Shown in pieces: positions 16,062 through 27,191 of a stretch of DNA of 64,000 nt (its first letter is position 1; every line of letters starts with the position of its first letter). Under the pieces are notes generated by a model. That model searched no databases, was not told the origin of the DNA, and saw nothing but the letters and a program-made list of their open reading frames with translations. This DNA is from Methanotrichaceae archaeon. GTDB taxonomy: Archaea > Halobacteriota > Methanosarcinia > Methanotrichales > Methanotrichaceae. The translations under genes were made by a program, and so were the position numbers. The stretch lies in assembly GCA_963813075.1 (NCBI GenBank), contig CAWEXU010000004.1, positions 96,001 to 160,000 on the forward strand, read 5' to 3'.

Positions 16062-18479
16062 ATGGCAACAAGAGAAGGCAGCTTTTCGGTTGAGGACATG
16101 AAGAACGTCCAGATCAACATAGGAGCTGTCGTTAAAGAGGCAGAGGAATGGGACCAGGAGATGGGTCCAGTTCCTAAGCCCGGTGTGGCGACGCTGCGCA
16201 GCTGGGATCACATACTTGCTAACCGATACAGGATCATGTATGCCCCGGCGGATGATACATGCACCCTTTGTACCTACGGCCCGTGCGACCTGACCGGAAA
16301 CAAGAAGGGCGCCTGCGGTATTGATCAGGCCGGCGCCTGCGGCAAGATCGTTTTAATTGCCTGTCTGATGGGCTGCTGTGCACATGCCGCTCATGGCAGG
16401 CATCTCTATCACTGGTGTGTGGACAAGTTCGGCGATATGAAGTTCGATATGGGCGACGAAATTTTGGTGGACTCTCCCATATATCAGACCATTGTGGGAA
16501 CCAAGCCAAAGAGCTTCAAGGACTTCGAGGAAGGGCTCTACTATCTTGAGGAGCAGGTCGTACAGCTTCTTGCGGCTACCCATACCGGCCAGGAGGGTGC
16601 TTACATAGACTTCGAGTCCAAGGCTCTTCATGCGGGCAGACTGGACCTCCTGGGCATGGAGATCTGCGATATGCTGCAGATCGTGGCCTATGACATGCCT
16701 CGCGGGAATGCAGATGCTCCAATCATCGAGATCGGCATGGGCACCATGGATCAGAATAAGGGCGTTCTCATCGCCTACGGCCACAACCTGGCAGCCGGTG
16801 CTGAGGCCATGATCTATGCTGAGAACAACAACCTCTGGGACAAAGTGGATATCGGCGGCGTCTGCTGCACAGCGCACGACCTGAACAGGATCGGCACTGG
16901 AACGGGCGAGTTGAGGGTGCCCAAGGATATAGGAAAGAAGCCCAAGGTAGCAGGAGCGATGGGCTGGTGGAGAAAGATGATCCGCTCCGGTGTCATGGAC
17001 TGCGTGATGGTGGACGAGCAGTGCGTCTTCTGCGATGTCCTCGGCGACGCCGAGAAGCGCAAGATCCCGGTCATTGCCACCACCGATAAGATCATGCTCG
17101 GCCTGCCGGACAGGACCAATGATTCCGTTGATGCCATAGTTGACGACCTGGTGAGCTTTAAGGTTCCAGGCGTTGCAGTCCTCGACCCGGTTAAGGCAGG
17201 AGAGATCGGCATCAGAGTAGCCATTGCGGTTAAACCCAAGAGGGCTGAGGCCAAGATCCAGAACCTGATCACAGAAGAGCAGTTCCAGGAAGGCCTCAAG
17301 AAATGCACCCAGTGCAATGAGTGCGCCTTCGTCTGTCCGCCACATATCAGAATCAGCAAGCTCATCGCTGAAGCGCTCAAGGGCAACAATCAGGAGTTCT
17401 CCAACTTCTATGAGATCTGCGTTGGCTGCGGAAGATGCGAACAGACTTGCCCCCAGGGCATAAACATCCTGGACCTTTTCGAGTATGCCAACCGCCAGGC
17501 AGTAAAGGATCAGAAGTTCAAGATGAGGTCCGGACGGGGACCTGCCCGCGACACTGAGATCAGGGCGGTGGGCGCTCCGCTCGTGCTGGGCACCATCCCT
17601 GGCGTTATCGCTCTGGTGGGATGCAGCAACTATCCCAACGGCACCAAGGAGTGCTACGACATTGCCAAGGAGTTCGTGGACCGGGGCTACATCGTCGTCA
17701 CCTCCGGCTGTATGGCCATGGATATGTCCCTTTACACCGATGAAGACGGCAAGACCATCTGGGAGCAGTTTGGCGGGGCCTTCGACGGCAGAAACATCTG
17801 CAACACCGGCTCATGCGTATCCAATGCCAACATCGGCGACGCAGCCATCAAGGTGGCCACCATATTCGCCCACAGAAACCACAGAGGCAACTTCGACGAT
17901 GTAGCTGACTACATCCTGAACAAGGTTGGTGCCTGCGGTGTGGCCTGGGGAGCATACTCTCAGAAGGCGGCATCAATCGCCACCGGTTGCAACGCACTGG
18001 GCATCCCGGTAGTCGTTCAGCCTCATTCGGTCATGTACCGCCGCTCATTCATGGGCAGGACGGACAATCCCGAGGACTGGATGGTAATCGATGCTCGTGA
18101 TGGCTCCATGCAGCAGATCGAGCCAGCACCCGAGGCCTTACTTTACGTTGCCGAGACCAAGGAAGAAGCAATGATGGAGATGGCCAAGCTCTGCTTCAGA
18201 CCATCGGACAACAGCATTGGCAGGGCAATCAAGCTGACCCACTACTGCGATATCTCCATGAAGTACTGCGGCAAGCTGCCCGATGACTGGCACATCTTCG
18301 TCCGCGACACCAAGGACCTTCCTCTGACCTACAAGGAACAGATGATGAAGGAGCTGGAGTCCAAGCACGGCTGGCAGGTTGACTGGAAGGCGAAGAAGTT
18401 CATCTCCGGGCCGATGAGACCTGCGGATGTTAGCTTTGATCCGACCAACCTGGCAAGGAAGATCAGGGCTAAAAAGTGA
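16062..18479 (+). CDS. cdhA: ACDS complex alpha subunit (CO dehydrogenase)
   Basis: 'CTLCTYGPCDL', C-cluster ligand contexts GHN, GGVCCT, DEQC, VGC, SGC, GSC; two extra [4Fe-4S] motifs. Confidence 0.97.
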   Translation: MATREGSFSVEDMKNVQINIGAVVKEAEEWDQEMGPVPKPGVATLRSWDHILANRYRIMYAPADDTCTLCTYGPCDLTGNKKGACGIDQAGACGKIVLIACLMGCCAHAAHGRHLYHWCVDKFGDMKFDMGDEILVDSPIYQTIVGTKPKSFKDFEEGLYYLEEQVVQLLAATHTGQEGAYIDFESKALHAGRLDLLGMEICDMLQIVAYDMPRGNADAPIIEIGMGTMDQNKGVLIAYGHNLAAGAEAMIYAENNNLWDKVDIGGVCCTAHDLNRIGTGTGELRVPKDIGKKPKVAGAMGWWRKMIRSGVMDCVMVDEQCVFCDVLGDAEKRKIPVIATTDKIMLGLPDRTNDSVDAIVDDLVSFKVPGVAVLDPVKAGEIGIRVAIAVKPKRAEAKIQNLITEEQFQEGLKKCTQCNECAFVCPPHIRISKLIAEALKGNNQEFSNFYEICVGCGRCEQTCPQGINILDLFEYANRQAVKDQKFKMRSGRGPARDTEIRAVGAPLVLGTIPGVIALVGCSNYPNGTKECYDIAKEFVDRGYIVVTSGCMAMDMSLYTDEDGKTIWEQFGGAFDGRNICNTGSCVSNANIGDAAIKVATIFAHRNHRGNFDDVADYILNKVGACGVAWGAYSQKAASIATGCNALGIPVVVQPHSVMYRRSFMGRTDNPEDWMVIDARDGSMQQIEPAPEALLYVAETKEEAMMEMAKLCFRPSDNSIGRAIKLTHYCDISMKYCGKLPDDWHIFVRDTKDLPLTYKEQMMKELESKHGWQVDWKAKKFISGPMRPADVSFDPTNLARKIRAKK

Positions 18480-18499
18480 GGGAGAAGGAGGATATAAAA

Positions 18500-19063
18500 A
18501 TGGCAGGAGAAGTTAAAAAGGGAATTGACACCACCAGAAACCCAATTCCCTTTGAGATGGCCCAGATACCAGGGCCAGAGATGGCCAAGACCTACATGCC
18601 CAAGGTCATAGGCGCTATAATCAAGAAGGCGAAGAGGCCACTCCTCGTAGTAGGAGCAGAGCTTTTCGATGACCCCATCATGTTCGATAAGATGATCGAG
18701 ATCGGCAAGATGGGCATACCGATTGCCGCCACAGCGCATTCCGTTAAGGGCTTTGTGGATAGAGGCTACCTGGATAACGTCTATCAGATCGGCCTGCACC
18801 CTCTGACCGCCAACCTGCGCTTCCCAGATTGGAAGGGCCTGGATGGACAGGGGCAGTACGATGTGGTCATATTCATGGGCATCTTCTACAAGTTCGCCAA
18901 TGCGATGTTCTCGACCCTGAAGAACTTCAACCGGGACATCAAGCGCGTCTCCATTGACCGCTACTATCATGTCAATGCCAATATGACCTTTGGCAACATG
19001 GCCTTCAATCCGGACGACTATCACGCCGCTGTGGACGAAATAATCGCAGCGATGAAGAAATAA
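18500..19063 (+). CDS. cdhB: ACDS complex epsilon subunit
   Basis: 'IIKKAKRPLLVVG', 'WKGLDGQGQYDVVIFMG', 'SIDRYYHVNA'; ATG at 18500 with GGAGG RBS. Confidence 0.95.
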   Translation: MAGEVKKGIDTTRNPIPFEMAQIPGPEMAKTYMPKVIGAIIKKAKRPLLVVGAELFDDPIMFDKMIEIGKMGIPIAATAHSVKGFVDRGYLDNVYQIGLHPLTANLRFPDWKGLDGQGQYDVVIFMGIFYKFANAMFSTLKNFNRDIKRVSIDRYYHVNANMTFGNMAFNPDDYHAAVDEIIAAMKK

Positions 19064-19102: not shown

Positions 19103-20509
19103 ATGGCAGATATAAAGTTGGACATATCCCCTATGTATGAGGGCGAGAGAATCAGAAAGGACGATCTATGGGTAGAGCTGGGCGGCCCCAAGGCAGACGG
19201 ATTCGAGCTGTCCCTGGCCACTCCCATGGACCAGATTGAGGATGGAAAGGTAACAGTTATCGGCCCCGACCTCGGAGAGACCCCTGAGGGCACCACCATG
19301 CCCTTTGGCATGATCTTCAGAGTTGCCGGCGAGAAGATCGAGAAGGACCTGGAGTCCATCATCGAGAGGCGCAACCATGCCCTTCTCTCCTACATAAGTG
19401 GCCTCATGCACCTCAACCAGAGATACGATATCTGGATGAGAATAGGCAAGAGCCTCAAGAAGAAGGGAGTCACCTCCTGGAAGGAGATCTACGGCCCGGT
19501 CATTGACCTGTACAAGGCCGAGATGCCATTCATTGAGAAGATGGACATCACCATCGTCACCGATCCAGCAAAGGTCAAAGAAGAGCTGGCCAAGGCCATG
19601 GCCGTATACAAGACCCGCGATGAGCGCGCCAAGGGACTGCACGATGAGGATGTCGATGTATTCTACGGCTGCACTCTCTGCCAGGCATTCGCACCCACCA
19701 GCGCCTGCGTGGTAACCCCGGACAGGCCATCACTGTGCGGAGCTATCACCTGGTTCGACGGCAGGGCTGCCGCCAAGGTGGACCCAGAGGGCCCCCAGTT
19801 CCCCATAGAGAAGGGAAACGCAGTTGACGCAGTTGCCGGCGAGTATGCTGCCATCAATGAGATGGCCGAGAAGAGGTCCGGCGGCGAGTACAGCAGCATG
19901 AAGCTGTACACATTCTTCGATGCTCCCCACACCTCCTGCGGCTGCTTCGAGACCATTGGCTTCTACATGCCTGAGGTTGACGGCATCGGCCTTGCCGACC
20001 GTGACTTCAAGGGCGCAACCCCCAACGGACTGCCCTTCTCCACCATGGCTGGACAGACCGGCGGCGGCAAGCAGGTCGTAGGCTTCCTGGGCATGGGCAT
20101 TCTCTACTACTTCTCCCCCAAGTTCCTCCAGGCCGATGGCGGCTGGAGAAGGATCGTCTGGATGTCCAAGGGCCTCAAGGAGAGGGTAAAGGAAGGCATC
20201 GATGCTGACATGATGGACAAGATCGCCACCGAGGACGATGCCAAGGACATCGCCGCCCTCAAGGCATTCCTGCTCAAGGTCAACCATCCGGTAGTCGATG
20301 GTGTCACCAGAAAGGTGGACGGCCAGAAGGTCACCGAGGGCTGGAAGCTTGAAGAGATTGATGATGACATCAAGGCGAAGGTCATGGCCTATATCGAGAA
20401 GACCGGCGGAGACATCAACATGGATACCGTCAAGTCCGAGCTTGCTCTGACCGAAGGCCAGTTCATGCAGGTCGTCGAGGCCTTGCAGGAAGACGGCGTG
20501 CTCGAGTGA
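19103..20509 (+). CDS. cdhC: ACDS complex beta subunit (acetyl-CoA synthase)
   Basis: 'FYGCTLCQAFAP', 'PHTSCGCFE' A-cluster motifs; atypical helical C-terminal domain. Confidence 0.97.
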   Translation: MADIKLDISPMYEGERIRKDDLWVELGGPKADGFELSLATPMDQIEDGKVTVIGPDLGETPEGTTMPFGMIFRVAGEKIEKDLESIIERRNHALLSYISGLMHLNQRYDIWMRIGKSLKKKGVTSWKEIYGPVIDLYKAEMPFIEKMDITIVTDPAKVKEELAKAMAVYKTRDERAKGLHDEDVDVFYGCTLCQAFAPTSACVVTPDRPSLCGAITWFDGRAAAKVDPEGPQFPIEKGNAVDAVAGEYAAINEMAEKRSGGEYSSMKLYTFFDAPHTSCGCFETIGFYMPEVDGIGLADRDFKGATPNGLPFSTMAGQTGGGKQVVGFLGMGILYYFSPKFLQADGGWRRIVWMSKGLKERVKEGIDADMMDKIATEDDAKDIAALKAFLLKVNHPVVDGVTRKVDGQKVTEGWKLEEIDDDIKAKVMAYIEKTGGDINMDTVKSELALTEGQFMQVVEALQEDGVLE

Positions 20510-20541
20510 GCAGATCCAAATCTATGAGAGGGTGTTAAACT

Positions 20542-20712
20542 ATGCAGCTAAAACTTAAACCAAAGGCACCTGCAGCCGCGGCTCCAGCAGCCGCACCTGC
20601 AGCAGCAGGCGCAGCAGCACCAGCCATAAGCATGTCCGGCAGCGCCGGCGGCATAAAGCTGATCCTGAAGGATGCCAAGATAAGCATAGATAAGGTAGTA
20701 CTCGCCAAGTAG
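20542..20712 (+). CDS. 56-aa ACDS-operon microprotein 1 (resembles the CdhC C-terminal tail)
   Basis: Manual translation MQLKLKPKAPAAAAPAAAPAAAGAAAPAISMSGSAGGIKLILKDAKISIDKVVLAK*; own RBS GAGAGGGTG; below the 60-aa ORF cut-off. Confidence 0.85.
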   Translation: MQLKLKPKAPAAAAPAAAPAAAGAAAPAISMSGSAGGIKLILKDAKISIDKVVLAK

Positions 20713-20795: not shown

Positions 20796-20972
20796 ATGCA
20801 GCTTAAGCTTAAGAAAAAGGAAGCGGCTCCGGCCGCAGCAGCAGCAGCACCTGCAGCAGGCGCAGCAGCTCCGGCTTTCGCTATGCCAGCAGCAGCATCG
20901 GGTGGGATGACCATTGAACTGAGGGGCGCATCCATCCACGTAGCAGAAGTCGTAATAAGACCGAAAAAATAA
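20796..20972 (+). CDS. 58-aa ACDS-operon microprotein 2 (paralogue of microprotein 1)
   Basis: Manual translation MQLKLKKKEAAPAAAAAAPAAGAAAPAFAMPAAASGGMTIELRGASIHVAEVVIRPKK*; RBS GAGGGAG. Confidence 0.85.
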   Translation: MQLKLKKKEAAPAAAAAAPAAGAAAPAFAMPAAASGGMTIELRGASIHVAEVVIRPKK

Positions 20973-20985
20973 GGAAGGCTAGACT

Positions 20986-21747
20986 TTGGGGAAAGTAATA
21001 GCGATAACTGGCAAAGGCGGCACCGGCAAGACCGCAGTGACCGCGATGCTCATCAGACATATTGTGAAAAGCACCGGGAAAAAGTATCAGGTCCTTGTTA
21101 TCGACGCCGATTCGGACGCCAACCTGGCGGACGCACTGGGCGTAAAGGTGGGAAAGACCATCGGCGACATGAGGGAATTCATGCAGCAATCCCGGTTCAC
21201 AACCTCTCCAGACACAGATAAACAGGTTCTTTTCGAGTCAAAGCTCTTCGAGATCCTCCTTGAGGAGGAGGGCTACGATCTTCTTGTGATGGGCAAGCCG
21301 GAAGGATCCGGATGCTACTGTTTTGTCAACAATCTTCTCCGCGGCATCATGGATAAGACCACGGCAAACTACGATCTGATCATCATCGACACCCCTGCGG
21401 GTCTCGAACACTTCAGCCGGAAGACAATTCCTGATCTGAACGATCTGATTTTGGTGACAGACGAATCCCGTCGGGGTCTTACCACGGGCGAGCGGATAAG
21501 AGACACCGCCCGGGAGATAGATCTGAAGTACGAGCATCTCTATGTGATCGTGAACAAGGTCACCGCAGGAAGGAAAGAGAAGGTCCTGGAGAACGCTAAG
21601 AGTATAGGCCTGGATGTTATCGGCACTGTCCCCTATGATGAGAGCTTAGCCAAATTCGATTTAGTGGGAGATCCATTGATGGGCCTTCCCGATGATTCGC
21701 CTGCAGTGCAAGAGATGGCGAATGTCGTCGGGAAACTGGGCCTGTGA
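20986..21747 (+). CDS. cooC: CooC/AcsF-type nickel-insertion ATPase
   Basis: '[12 protein letters not shown]', 'IDADSDANL', 'GSGCYCFVN', '[11 protein letters not shown]'. Confidence 0.93.
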
Positions 21748-21758
21748 GGGTGATTCGA

Positions 21759-23111
21759 ATGGCAGACAAGATCACTTTATCTGACCTGAATAAGACATTA
21801 ACAGAGATGAATGTTCAATCCCTCGAGGGACTGAAGATCGAGGGAGATGTTGAGATAGACCTGGACGTGGGTGCAGGTGGCGTAGGTCCGCTCTTTGCTT
21901 ACTACTTTGGAGAGCAGGCAGCCAAGATCGCCATGCAGCTCATGGAGTTCGCCAAGGCAGTGGGATATCCAGTACAGAACCTGATGCAGCCGGTGGCTGT
22001 CGCTCAGGCATTATCCCCGGCGCCCAAGGACATAGCAGCAGCCGCTGCCGGAGTCCCTGCCTTTAAGGTGGCAAGCGCCCTGGCCAGTGCCAAGTTTTCC
22101 GTCGGCGTTGACAAGACCTGGAAGCATCCCATCCAGGAGGTAACCCTGGGAGCTACCAAGGCAGACGGCGGAAGCCGCGGCCATGTGGTAAAGCTGGGTG
22201 GCGAGAAGGCCATGCCCTTCTTCCCGGATGCAGCAATGCCCCATGCCCCCAAGATCACCATGGATGTCTTCGACATGCCCATCGGCATGGCCAAGGCAGT
22301 CAAGATGCATTATGAGGATGTAATCAACTCCCCAGGCGAGTGGGCCAAGAAGGCAGTCAAGGAGTTCGGCGCCGATATGGTCACCGTTCACCTGATCAGC
22401 ACTGATCCCCTCCTGAAGGATACTTCCGCCCAGGATGCAGTCAAGACAGTAGAAGAGGTTCTGCAGGCTGTGGACGTGCCCATCTGCATCGGCGGATCAG
22501 GCAACCCGGACAAGGATCCAATAGTGCTCTCCAAGGCAGCTGAAGTAGCCCAGGGCGAGCGCGTTCTTATCGCTTCCGCCAACCTGAACATGGACTGGGA
22601 GAAGATCGGCAAGGCCTGTGTGGACAACGGACATGTATGCCTCGCCTGGACCCAGCTGGAGATCAACTCCCAGAAGGAGCTGAACAGAAAGCTGATGAAG
22701 GTCGCCGGCGTCCCGCGCGAGTCCATCGTCATGGACCCGACAACCGCAGCTCTCGCTTACGGCCTGGACTTCGCCTACTCCAACATGGAGAGAATCAGGC
22801 TCGGCGCTCTGAAGGGCGACGATGAGCTGACATTCCCCATGTCCTCCGGCACCACCAACGCCTGGGGTGTCAGAGAGTCCTGGATGGTTCGCTCACCAAA
22901 CAAGGACGACTCCGACTGGGGAGACAGAATGCTCAGAGGCCCGATCTGGGAGATTCTGACCGGCTACTCTCTGGCTATGGCCGGAGTGGACATCTTCATG
23001 ATGATGCATCCAACCGCGGTTGCATATCTGCATGAGATCACCCAGTCTCTGATGGGAAGAATAGACGCCAAGACGCCTGATGCCAATGCCTGGCTCAAGA
23101 TGGGGGTGTGA
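21759..23111 (+). CDS. cdhD: ACDS complex delta subunit (corrinoid Fe-S protein small subunit)
   Basis: '[20 protein letters not shown]', '[11 protein letters not shown]', '[13 protein letters not shown]'; ATG at 21759 after GGTGA RBS. Confidence 0.96.
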
Positions 23112-23116
23112 GGAAA

Positions 23117-24532
23117 ATGAAGGAAACAAGCCCGCTTAACCTTTACAAGCAGCTTCCACAGACTAACTGCAAGAAGTGCGGAGAGGAGACCTGTATGGCC
23201 TTTGCCGCCGGCCTGATCGCCAGAACCCGGAAGGTAGAGGAGTGCACTCCGTTAATTGAAGAGAAGAAGTACGCCAAGAAGCTTGCTACCCTCAGAAGCA
23301 CCGTCGCTCCCGAGCTGAAGATGGTCTATGTGGGTGTCGGAGACAAGCAGGCCAAGGTAGGTGGCGAGGACGTCATGTACCGCCATCAGATGACCTTCTT
23401 CAACAAGCCGCCATTTGCCTATGATGTTGCCGACAACATGGAAGAGGCAAAGCTCATCGAGCGCGTAAAGAAGATCACCACCTGGCGAAAGTTCTACATC
23501 GGCAAGTGGCAGGGCGTGGAGATGATTGCCGTCCGGTCTGTGACCGACGATCCGGCCAAGTTCGCCGCCTGCGTCAAGACCGTCATGGCCAATGGCAATG
23601 GCTTCCCCCTCATCCTCTGCTCCTTCAACCCGGCAGTTCTCAAGGCCGGCCTGGAGGTCGCAGCCAAGGAGAAGCCACTCATCTATGCCGCAACCAAGGA
23701 CAACTGGAAGGAGGTCGCTCAGCTGGCCAATGACTACAAGGTCCCAGTCACATTGAGCGTTCCCTTCGACCTGGATGGACTCAAGTCCATGGCCGTCACC
23801 TTCGCCGAAATGGGACTGACCGACCTGGTCCTTGACCCCGGAACGGCACCCAACGGCAAGATGCTGCAGCAGACCCTCACCAACTTCATCAACCTGAGGA
23901 GAGCAGCGGTAGAAGAGGCCCAGAGGGATATCGCTTACCCGGTCATGGTTCTGCCCATCAACGCCTGGCTGACCACCGAAGACCCGGTTCGTGCTTCTTA
24001 CTGGGAGTCTGTGCTCACCGCAGCCTTCGTCATTCGCGGCGGTGCAATCATGATCAAGCACTCCCTTGAGCCGCACAGCATGATGCCCGATATGCATCTG
24101 CGCTTCAACATCTACACCGATCCCAGGACGCCTGTGCAGGTCAAGCCCGGCATCTACAAGGTCGGCAATCCAGGACCGGAGTCGCCAGTCTTCCTGACCA
24201 CCAACTTCGCCCTGACCTACTACACCGTAGAGTCGGACGTAGCCTCAAACGGCATCGATGCTTACATCATCGCCATCAACACCGATGGTATCGGAGTGCA
24301 GGCATCTGTCGCTGGTGGACAGCTGAGCCCGGTCAAGATCCAGGACTCCTTCAACGAGGCAGCCTTCGACTGGGCCGGTCAAAAGTACCCGGCCATGGTC
24401 CTGCCCGGAATGGCAGCCAAGTTCTCAGGCGAGCTGGAGGACCTCTTTGCAGGCAAGGCCAAGATCATGGTCGGCCCAGAGGACTCCGGACGCATCATCG
24501 GCTGGATGAAGGACTACTGGCCACCCAAGTAA
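23117..24532 (+). CDS. cdhE: ACDS complex gamma subunit (corrinoid Fe-S protein large subunit)
   Basis: 'LPQTNCKKCGEETCMAFA', 'NIYTDPRTP', 'TTNFALTY'. Confidence 0.96.
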   Translation: MKETSPLNLYKQLPQTNCKKCGEETCMAFAAGLIARTRKVEECTPLIEEKKYAKKLATLRSTVAPELKMVYVGVGDKQAKVGGEDVMYRHQMTFFNKPPFAYDVADNMEEAKLIERVKKITTWRKFYIGKWQGVEMIAVRSVTDDPAKFAACVKTVMANGNGFPLILCSFNPAVLKAGLEVAAKEKPLIYAATKDNWKEVAQLANDYKVPVTLSVPFDLDGLKSMAVTFAEMGLTDLVLDPGTAPNGKMLQQTLTNFINLRRAAVEEAQRDIAYPVMVLPINAWLTTEDPVRASYWESVLTAAFVIRGGAIMIKHSLEPHSMMPDMHLRFNIYTDPRTPVQVKPGIYKVGNPGPESPVFLTTNFALTYYTVESDVASNGIDAYIIAINTDGIGVQASVAGGQLSPVKIQDSFNEAAFDWAGQKYPAMVLPGMAAKFSGELEDLFAGKAKIMVGPEDSGRIIGWMKDYWPPK

Positions 24533-25138: not shown

Positions 25139-26005
25139 ATGATACTCCCCTGCAAACACGAAACCCAGGTGACCGACCAGGTACCTAGAGCGATAGATCT
25201 TTTAATAAATATGGATAAGTCTCATCCGAATCTGCTGCTTGAACATAATATCCAGCCGATCGACTACAGGCAGGGCCTTGTTTTCAGATCAGCTGTTGAA
25301 AGCATTCGCGGCACATTTATTGCCTCTTCCACTACGAGAAGAGAAGGATTAATCGGCGACGTTTTAGAGAACATGCTTCAAAAGGGCATAGTTGTAGATT
25401 ACGAACAAACGGGCAACAGTCGAAGATACGACTTTGTAGTTATCGTCGAAAATGATCCAGACTACATCGCAGCTATAGAGGTAAAAGGCGGGGAAGGAAA
25501 TAGCATAAACATCTCAGAGCGTCCTCTCTGGGCAAAAGAGTTTTGTGTTTGGTCCCATCTGGATGGAGCTATTGTGAATCAGCCCGGACATGGTGCACAC
25601 TCCATAATAAACCGTTTAACTAATGAGCTTGTTAGACGTCATAAATTAGTTGACGCCCTATTTTTCAAAGACATCTTATGTGGGACGAGGACGAGGCCAT
25701 GTCCTAAATATTCCGATAGAATGGAGACAATTGGGCTAAACGCAGCTCCTGATGTTTTTTTGTTTCCTCAGCGTGTACCAACTCTCGAAGATCCTATGCC
25801 ACCGATTCATTCTCTTGAGACGCTAAAGCTGCCTGGGAAGATTCTAGATTTATTTGATGTAAATCCGAGTGCGAGAGAAGAGCATCTTTGGGAGGTGCAT
25901 GTTGGAGTTGAAAGAGTCTCAAATGATCGAATTCAAAGAAGGGTGACAATTTTGCATAAAGGAGAAATAATCGATGAGAGTCGATCCCGAGCATGGCGGC
26001 CTTAG
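25139..26005 (+). CDS. Putative type II restriction endonuclease (PD-(D/E)xK)
   Basis: 'RRYDFVV...IAAIEVKGG' catalytic-like motif; lower GC; directly upstream of a DNA methyltransferase. Confidence 0.65.
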   Translation: MILPCKHETQVTDQVPRAIDLLINMDKSHPNLLLEHNIQPIDYRQGLVFRSAVESIRGTFIASSTTRREGLIGDVLENMLQKGIVVDYEQTGNSRRYDFVVIVENDPDYIAAIEVKGGEGNSINISERPLWAKEFCVWSHLDGAIVNQPGHGAHSIINRLTNELVRRHKLVDALFFKDILCGTRTRPCPKYSDRMETIGLNAAPDVFLFPQRVPTLEDPMPPIHSLETLKLPGKILDLFDVNPSAREEHLWEVHVGVERVSNDRIQRRVTILHKGEIIDESRSRAWRP

Positions 26006-26015
26006 GAGGTAAACA

Positions 26016-27191
26016 GTGGCAAATAGTGCCGGGGACACAAGGCAGATAACACTGTTCGACGATGTGGAATCTTTCACTTGCTTGAATTCTCAACTGTGGA
26101 GAGGATCTTATCAGTCGCGAGAGAGCACCTTTCAGCAACTATCTCCCTATGTTGGCAAAATGAAATCAGGTATGGCAAAGGTTCTCGTTAATCTCTATTC
26201 AAAACGTGGGGATACTGTGCTTGATCCATTTTCTGGTTCAGGTGTTGTCCCTTTTGAGGCGGTTATATCCGATCGAGTTGCTTGGGCAAATGATCTTAGT
26301 CCTTATGCATATGCCATCACTCGTGGGAAGCTTGATGCTCCTGCAAGCGAGAAAAAAGCCCTTGAGAGAGTGGCGATACTTACGAGTGCGATTGAAAGCC
26401 AAGCTCCTTCGGTAGACCTTTCTTTAACCCCTCAATGGGTTAGAGAATTCTTTCATCCTGAAACTTTAAAAGAAATTTTATTGGCCTTTCGAATTTTAAA
26501 AGAAGAAAATGACTTTTTCTTGACTGCTTGTTTGCTAGGCATTTTGCATCACGTTAGGCCAGGTTTTCTTTCGTATCCTGCTAGCCATCTCGTTCCGTAT
26601 CTTAGGAAGTCAATGTACCCTCCAGAAGATTTTCCTCATATGTATTCCTATAGAGACCTTGGTTCTCGCCTGGCTGCAAAGGTAAAACGTGCCTACAGTC
26701 GATCTTTTCTTCCACTTGATTGGGAGAATAGGAAATACAAAGTCTGGAGAGTTAACTCCATGAATCTGCCCATCGATGATGAAGTGGTCGATACAATCAT
26801 ATCAAGCCCTCCTTATTTCGGAGCTCTTGATTACGCTCGCGATAATCGTCTTAGATTATGGTTTTTGGGATGCGAAGACTGGAAGGAACTGGATGCCTCG
26901 ATGACAGCAAAAACCCGAGTCTATTTGCCGCAAATGTCAAAATGCATTTCTGAGATGCACCGTGTTCTTAAGCCCGAGGGATATTGCGTGCTAGTTCTCG
27001 GCGATGTGGAGCGCGACGGGCAAATCAGGCGTACAGCAGAGATTTTGGCAGATTTAGCGAGACAGATTTGCGATGATGGTTTTTTTGTTGAGACAATTTA
27101 CGATGATATAATTCCTGACGAAAGGAGATCACGAAGGAGAACGTGCACGACAAAGTTCGAGAGAATATTGGTGATGAAAAAAGTTGGATGA
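26016..27191 (+). CDS. DNA methyltransferase, probably N4-cytosine, alpha-type motif order
   Basis: Motif I 'VLDPFSGSG' N-terminal, motif IV 'ISSPPY' C-terminal; GGAGGT RBS. Confidence 0.9.
   Translation: MANSAGDTRQITLFDDVESFTCLNSQLWRGSYQSRESTFQQLSPYVGKMKSGMAKVLVNLYSKRGDTVLDPFSGSGVVPFEAVISDRVAWANDLSPYAYAITRGKLDAPASEKKALERVAILTSAIESQAPSVDLSLTPQWVREFFHPETLKEILLAFRILKEENDFFLTACLLGILHHVRPGFLSYPASHLVPYLRKSMYPPEDFPHMYSYRDLGSRLAAKVKRAYSRSFLPLDWENRKYKVWRVNSMNLPIDDEVVDTIISSPPYFGALDYARDNRLRLWFLGCEDWKELDASMTAKTRVYLPQMSKCISEMHRVLKPEGYCVLVLGDVERDGQIRRTAEILADLARQICDDGFFVETIYDDIIPDERRSRRRTCTTKFERILVMKKVG

Follow-up and report, generated by a model that had tools for sequence, protein, structure and literature searches.

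The acetyl-CoA synthase (ACS) CdhC of a Methanotrichaceae archaeon, encoded in a 64,000-nucleotide stretch of its genome (the window), ends in a truncated winged-helix (wH) domain, and the tail that usually follows its core is found on separate microprotein genes downstream. By analogy with the CdvA-CdvB pair, the N-terminal strand of these microproteins probably completes the wH sheet in trans, rebuilding the ACS tether non-covalently. In the mechanism that we propose, the truncated wH would take the place of the tail on CdhC, the basic microprotein strand would occupy the position of the last strand that the acidic wH lacks, and the linker and hairpin that follow would keep ACS close to the ACDS core, as has been proposed for the covalent tail. 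The C-terminal hairpin would be anchored in that core, as suggested by the Methanosarcina CdhC tail proposal in the available sections of bioRxiv 10.64898/2026.07.07.736967. The enzyme would thereby stay in its very large complex through a non-covalent link that can be detached.

The features of the locus, all on the forward strand, are as follows.

16062..19063, +: cdhA and cdhB (CO dehydrogenase), same operon, upstream of cdhC; TIGR00314 and TIGR00315 above cut-off
19103..20509, +: cdhC, 468 aa, encoding acetyl-CoA synthase (ACDS beta subunit) that lacks the customary disordered tail; TIGR00316 match
20342..20506, +: truncated ('broken') wH domain, W414-E468, net charge -9, C-terminus of CdhC
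20528..20534, +: Shine-Dalgarno-like site of microprotein 1, from sequence, with purine-rich counterparts in relatives
20542..20712, +: microprotein 1, 56 aa, made of an N-terminal strand, an Ala/Pro linker and the CdhC-tail hairpin motif
20542..20565, +: predicted docking strand, microprotein 1 residues 1-8; invariant L3, L5, K6, K8
20796..20972, +: microprotein 2, 58 aa; N-terminal strand and linker as in microprotein 1, second hairpin type
20796..20819, +: predicted docking strand, microprotein 2 residues 1-8; invariant L3, L5, K6, K8
20986..24532, +: CooC/AcsF-like ATPase, cdhD and cdhE, same operon, downstream of the microproteins

The gene order is that of an archaeal ACDS operon: cdhA, cdhB, cdhC, two small ORFs, a CooC-like ATPase, cdhD, cdhE. 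The ATPase is presumably CooC/AcsF-like, a name given from its MinD/ParA-type matches and its position. CdhC scored 634 bits against TIGR00316 (curated cut-off 356), which identifies an ACS A2-A3 core. Contigs from RNA libraries covered 30/30 bins of the stretch in two of four runs, and one such contig spans cdhC into microprotein 1, both read without a silent-region control. Downstream of the operon, at 25139-27191 of the window, lie two ORFs that by eye resemble a restriction endonuclease and a DNA methyltransferase.

A truncated winged-helix domain at the end of CdhC

Three comparisons with known CdhC stop well before the end of the window CdhC. The alignment to TIGR00316 reaches position 420 of the 460 in the model, CdhC family models end at around residue 420-425, and Methanosarcina chain 9c0s_E aligned with residues 1-410. 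Among 150 listed matches for 201 class genomes, complete CdhC copies of family f1 align up to residue 467-468, and those of other families stop at 399-414. We took f1 to be Methanotrichaceae, since the relatives that the small ORFs have in databases carry the name Methanothrix sp. The disordered C-terminal extension is absent from the window CdhC chain, its homologue being a separate microprotein.

The sequence-only reading had proposed that CdhC ends not in a disordered tail but in a broken wH of the CdvB type, with a helix-strand-helix-helix-strand pattern. The C-terminus that it quoted is exact, corresponding to the last 46 residues of the 468-aa ORF, and position 20342 encodes W414. AlphaFold2 on the last 62 residues (27 sequences) predicted a folded three-helix domain with a mean pLDDT of 81.9 and helices at 421-434, 440-447 and 451-464. 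No strand was assigned in the model, so both strands of the domain derive from alignment. In winged-helix topology, one strand pairs the other two in the sheet, and a strandless model fits a sheet from which that strand is missing.

Profile comparison located the truncation. The CdhC domain matched five complete archaeal wH domains in hhalign with a probability of 97.3%, the match ending at column 54 of 68, which means that the wing and the last strand are missing from CdhC. The five are DUF7343-like domains (PF24034) of archaeal membrane proteins, which carry wing and last strand in cis, whereas the CdhC domain is without both. PF24034 was matched weakly by all 27 family members, the window domain staying below its gathering threshold (16.4 vs 27.6 bits). 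Homologous CdhC domains end at the same place or within 3 residues of it.

The CdvB broken wH (2xvc_A) was the best of 177,635 PDB sequences with a 34-sequence family profile (E 1.6e-4 over 44 columns); it came sixth, at E 0.58, with the narrower 27-sequence profile, and when the last 69 residues of CdhC were searched against the PDB as one sequence, there was no match. By VIA-align, 2xvc_A was found among many wH and HTH domains (Z 5.5, rmsd 2.4, 48 aligned), slightly below the leading Lrp/AsnC domains (Z 6.7); fold matches are middling. In Foldseek, the comparison that the earlier reading had itself suggested, 2xvc_A ranked second without significance, no match reaching E <= 0.001. An ESM Atlas search with the domain returned scores all under 0.9, to be taken as leads only. 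Taken together, sequence, profile and fold tests bear out the reading of the CdhC end as a broken wH of the CdvB type.

Resemblance to CdvB is confined to this domain. The CdvB (ESCRT-III) family model NF041008 matched over residues 214-256 only, with 15.2 bits against a cut-off of 370, and we found neither a Snf7/ESCRT-III core nor a MIM2 ahead of the wH, the remainder of the protein being CdhC. The fold neighbours also include Z-alpha, Lrp and MarR domains, raising the idea that the wH binds DNA or RNA and gives CdhC a moonlighting regulatory role. The domain shows no basic recognition surface of the kind that DNA-binding wHTH domains (Lrp/AsnC, Z-alpha, MarR) have; it is acidic, with a net charge of -9 here and of -5 to -20 in 22 of 23 homologues, and its wing is missing, so that binding of nucleic acid is very improbable.

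A self-contained module could also have replaced the tail, with the wH acting in oligomerisation or partner recognition (self-pairing of its terminal strand, or binding to CooC or CoFeSP) and the microproteins serving as independent scaffold fillers. The best fold matches, N-terminal domains of Lrp/AsnC proteins, are consistent with this, since such domains dimerise; the strongly acidic charge disfavours self-pairing of the wH, and we regard this alternative as improbable on grounds completed by the distribution of the domain below.

The microproteins as a detached CdhC tail

Microproteins 1 and 2 share the MQLKLK start that had been noticed from the sequence, although its first two residues did not hold up as a motif: within the family 'MQ' is not conserved, and the invariant positions are L3, L5, K6 and K8 (25 sequences for microprotein 1 and 14 for microprotein 2). 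Across families, K6 is the only invariant residue of the strand. In the whole genome, the motif at a start behind a ribosome-binding-like site occurred in both microproteins and in one unrelated weak match only. The motif is also present in 119 of 120 database microproteins, a count that is circular because the search profile itself holds the motif and that we did not use as support.

The remainder of microprotein 1 is homologous to the CdhC tail, matching CdhC model NF003379 at positions 423-458 and 9c0s_E at residues 417-466 (E 1.2e-5). The microproteins are the usual tail of CdhC, or a hairpin sister to it, encoded on separate genes and supplied with an N-terminal L-x-L-K strand. Most of the 87 matching genomes, among 105 genomes of the family, have two microprotein matches. 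The gap between cdhC and the microprotein falls in all three frames (17/15/16 of 48), indicating separate genes without conserved read-through; this rules out a read-through fusion of cdhC and microprotein 1. Modelled alone, microprotein 1 had a pLDDT of 60, a pTM of 0.20 and no secondary structure, a result uninformative beyond disorder.

Comparison of the strand with the last strand of complete wH domains revealed no direct sequence similarity (probability 0.2%). The strand does resemble the one that opens the tail hairpin. This resemblance is one ground for an alternative in which a different strand completes the wH (from the microprotein hairpin, or from the N-terminus of CdhA or CdhD) and the L-x-L-K strand is an extra scaffold strand of the ACDS core. 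Free hairpin and free CdhD-N-terminus peptides in other ACDS operons point the same way, as does a crosslink between CdhA E15 and CdhC K452 that joins the tails in Methanosarcina (bioRxiv 10.64898/2026.07.07.736967, available sections). We consider this alternative unlikely: the hairpin is present without any wH in 55 fused CdhCs, and the strand was found with the wH only.

By eye, an alternating hydrophobic two-strand pattern is common to the N-terminus of CdhA (16062-16140 of the window), the tail hairpin (20650-20709) and the N-terminus of CdhD (21762-21880), a hint that the three may join in one beta assembly within the ACDS core.

Co-occurrence of domain and strand

In fused CdhCs, an acidic linker starts directly after the conserved Trp, and the wH starts at the same place; the split form hence reads core, wH, stop, strand, linker, tail. 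Judged from sequence, this arrangement reads as a two-part insert placed where the chain was cut.

A census of all fetched loci yielded 124 distinct CdhC ends, 69 of the wH type and 55 fused. A strand-bearing microprotein follows 66 of the 69 wH-type ends (58 identified by script, 5 by eye, 2 with frameshifts and 1 via an identical locus), the remaining three being one end at a contig edge and two orphan second copies. Because 51 of the 69 are from family f1, the wH ends are not independent. Of the fused ends, 50 are without a free tail, one lies at an edge and four are accompanied by a hairpin-only peptide that lacks the linker. The strand motif was found in none of the 26 fused linkers examined, and docking is favoured by this co-occurrence of wH and strand (66/69 vs 0/26).

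The association spans seven families. Beyond f1, in 401 phylum genomes, wH-type CdhC was found in f9 (3/4), f11 (3/3, loci named Methanocellales MAGs), f12 (4/5), f22 (3/3), f25 (1/1) and f33 (2 genomes). Genomes of f22 and f33 hold both types of operon, and their fused operons are without a strand-bearing microprotein. The wH-type ends are scattered over the CdhC tree: a quick tree of 53 CdhC cores required 6 changes of the wH state, at least 3 of them forced by strong branches. Apparent strandless microproteins in four genomes (G142, G130, G537 and G233) were traced to scaffold gaps, a contig end or frameshifts, and 7 of 8 inspected weak wH matches in other families were complete wH domains of other proteins.

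The two orphan copies (L043 in G050 and L067 in G072) are second, stand-alone cdhC genes with a less acidic wH, followed by neither a microprotein nor operon genes. Such copies would suit a self-contained module, but both genomes encode microproteins at their main operon, and a module acting alone would leave unexplained why the strand accompanies only the wH and why their charges are reciprocally swapped in one lineage (see below). Conversely, at L108:1740-1895 (G016) a copy of microprotein 1 follows cdhA-cdhB and precedes membrane and Fe-S genes, and no cdhC was found between them.

Docking of the microprotein strand on the wH is also consistent with the mobility of that strand, which behaves like a portable tag. 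Tandem copies were found in three lineages. In five wH operons of f22/f33 the strand is on the N-terminus of CdhD, and it is absent in two fused operons for which the CdhD start was read.

In L096-L100, the CdhD that follows the microprotein shares with it the basic alternating strand at its start, which would allow direct docking of ACS on CoFeSP; the CdhCs of these loci have an N-terminal extension and a long branch. Stand-alone 39-71-aa copies of the CdhD N-terminus were observed in wH-type operons (L094:1859-1981, L095:1190-1309, L086:2689-2904 and L087:2645-2860), and L054, L089 and L092 hold further ORFs of a similar kind. In f8, a 27-29-aa hairpin-only ORF (L105:1998-2081, and in L106, L107, L120 and L167, the last named Archaeoglobus sp.) is flanked by an ordinary fused cdhC on one side and the CooC-like gene on the other; its sequence is similar to the microprotein 2 hairpin, and it is probably an overlooked ACDS micro-subunit. 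It seems that ACDS operons contain several scaffold peptides in free form.

Charge reversal and relation to known systems

An acidic wH end is paired with a basic microprotein start (first 15 residues) in 22 of 23 pairs. In the 23rd, L101 (G249, named Methanonatronarchaeales archaeon), both signs are reversed. Its first-strand segment has a charge of +2, where 33 others range from -1 to -3, and helix 3 with the second strand has +4, where they range from -2 to -6; the helix 1 and helix 2 segments are in range. The core of the same protein is acidic (-12 per 100 residues), and +4 was reached by 0/391 core windows. On the microprotein side, the strand keeps its alternating hydrophobic residues and has acidic residues between them, and the hairpin is still basic. 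That hairpin charge remained constant while strand charge changed argues against completion of the wH by the hairpin. If the two parts touch directly, a basic patch arising against the acidic bias is to be expected in just these segments, which should lie on either side of the missing strand.

A sister pair, P0122/P0143, repeats the swap more weakly, the P0122 end having a charge of +2 that was reached by 14/391 core windows. P0122 and P0143 each lie on a single 24,923-base contig and are therefore probably neighbours. No further charge-swapped lineage was found in the metagenome scan. No other genome of its order accompanies G249, and of the 5 in its class it alone had a CdhC found by the query used. 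The swap counts as a single event in evolution, and since the proteome is acidic, the acidic strand could be drift.

The docking predicted from the window is thus supported by comparison, through co-occurrence, tree scatter, portability and reciprocal charge swap. Against it stand the single swap event, the two orphan wH-CdhCs, L108, the likeness of strand and hairpin, and the middling fold scores. We infer physical binding and strand geometry from CdvA-CdvB. In that system, the CdvA E3B peptide completes the CdvB wH in trans (PMC5840170 and PMC12909875, available text), and the domain, known as BWH and paired with the E3B/BWI peptide (Sulfolobales, PDB 2xvc), is likewise a C-terminal three-helix wH core minus one strand. 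Co-occurrence of partner strand and domain, reported for BWI/BWH in the accessible part of PMC8970359, likewise holds for the CdhC wH. The two differ in that the CdvB domain sits on an ESCRT-III core and the CdhC domain on acetyl-CoA synthase, that the Cdv ligand is the CdvA C-terminus and the presumed CdhC ligand an N-terminal microprotein strand, and that CdvA-CdvB binding was measured (Kd 6 uM; PMC5840170, available text), whereas the CdhC pair is predicted. By this analogy, the CdhC-microprotein pair would work like CdvA-CdvB but is not CdvB.

Canonical ACDS (Methanosarcina; PDB 9c0s) has the same operon, catalytic subunits, linker and terminal motif. Its CdhC tail is covalent and disordered; here a folded domain stands where that tail starts, and separate genes encode two versions of the tail, each headed by a new strand. 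In its available sections, bioRxiv 10.64898/2026.07.07.736967 (2026) proposes that the CdhC tail tethers ACS to the CdhD scaffold in the 2-MDa ACDS and states that biochemical data on the tail are lacking; its main text mentions no Methanothrix, winged helices or small proteins, and its extended data may show such models. Beyond this preprint, a literature search that left most subscription papers outside its scope found no account of a wH-CdhC with strand microproteins, and the accessible part of 10.1101/2024.02.06.579148 held nothing further. The split CdhC is real and conserved, and represents a new form of ACDS architecture with a probable strand-complementation tether.

This natural split form makes the tether proposal testable, as the enzyme can be studied with or without its tail, supplied as a 56-aa peptide, and the charge-swapped natural pair offers a specificity control. 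A further prediction is that acetate-splitting methanogens of the Methanothrix type have two ACDS subunits that have been overlooked. More speculatively, the tether may be of a plug-and-socket kind, the wH forming the socket for a portable 7-residue strand carried by several scaffold parts, so that ACS could be moved or released, tuning acetyl-CoA cleavage. If so, the anchors would be the two microproteins here and tandem strands or CdhD itself elsewhere, and the acidic/basic and basic/acidic versions would be two orthogonal natural pairs.

Among Cdv proteins, the BWH/BWI pair is found only in Crenarchaeota according to the available text of PMC8970359, and the CdhC case would extend strand-completed winged helices from there to central carbon metabolism. 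Proteins other than CdhC may share such broken wH ends more widely, since a truncated wH also forms the C-terminus of P0141, a membrane protein of 218 aa that carries a zinc-ribbon motif.
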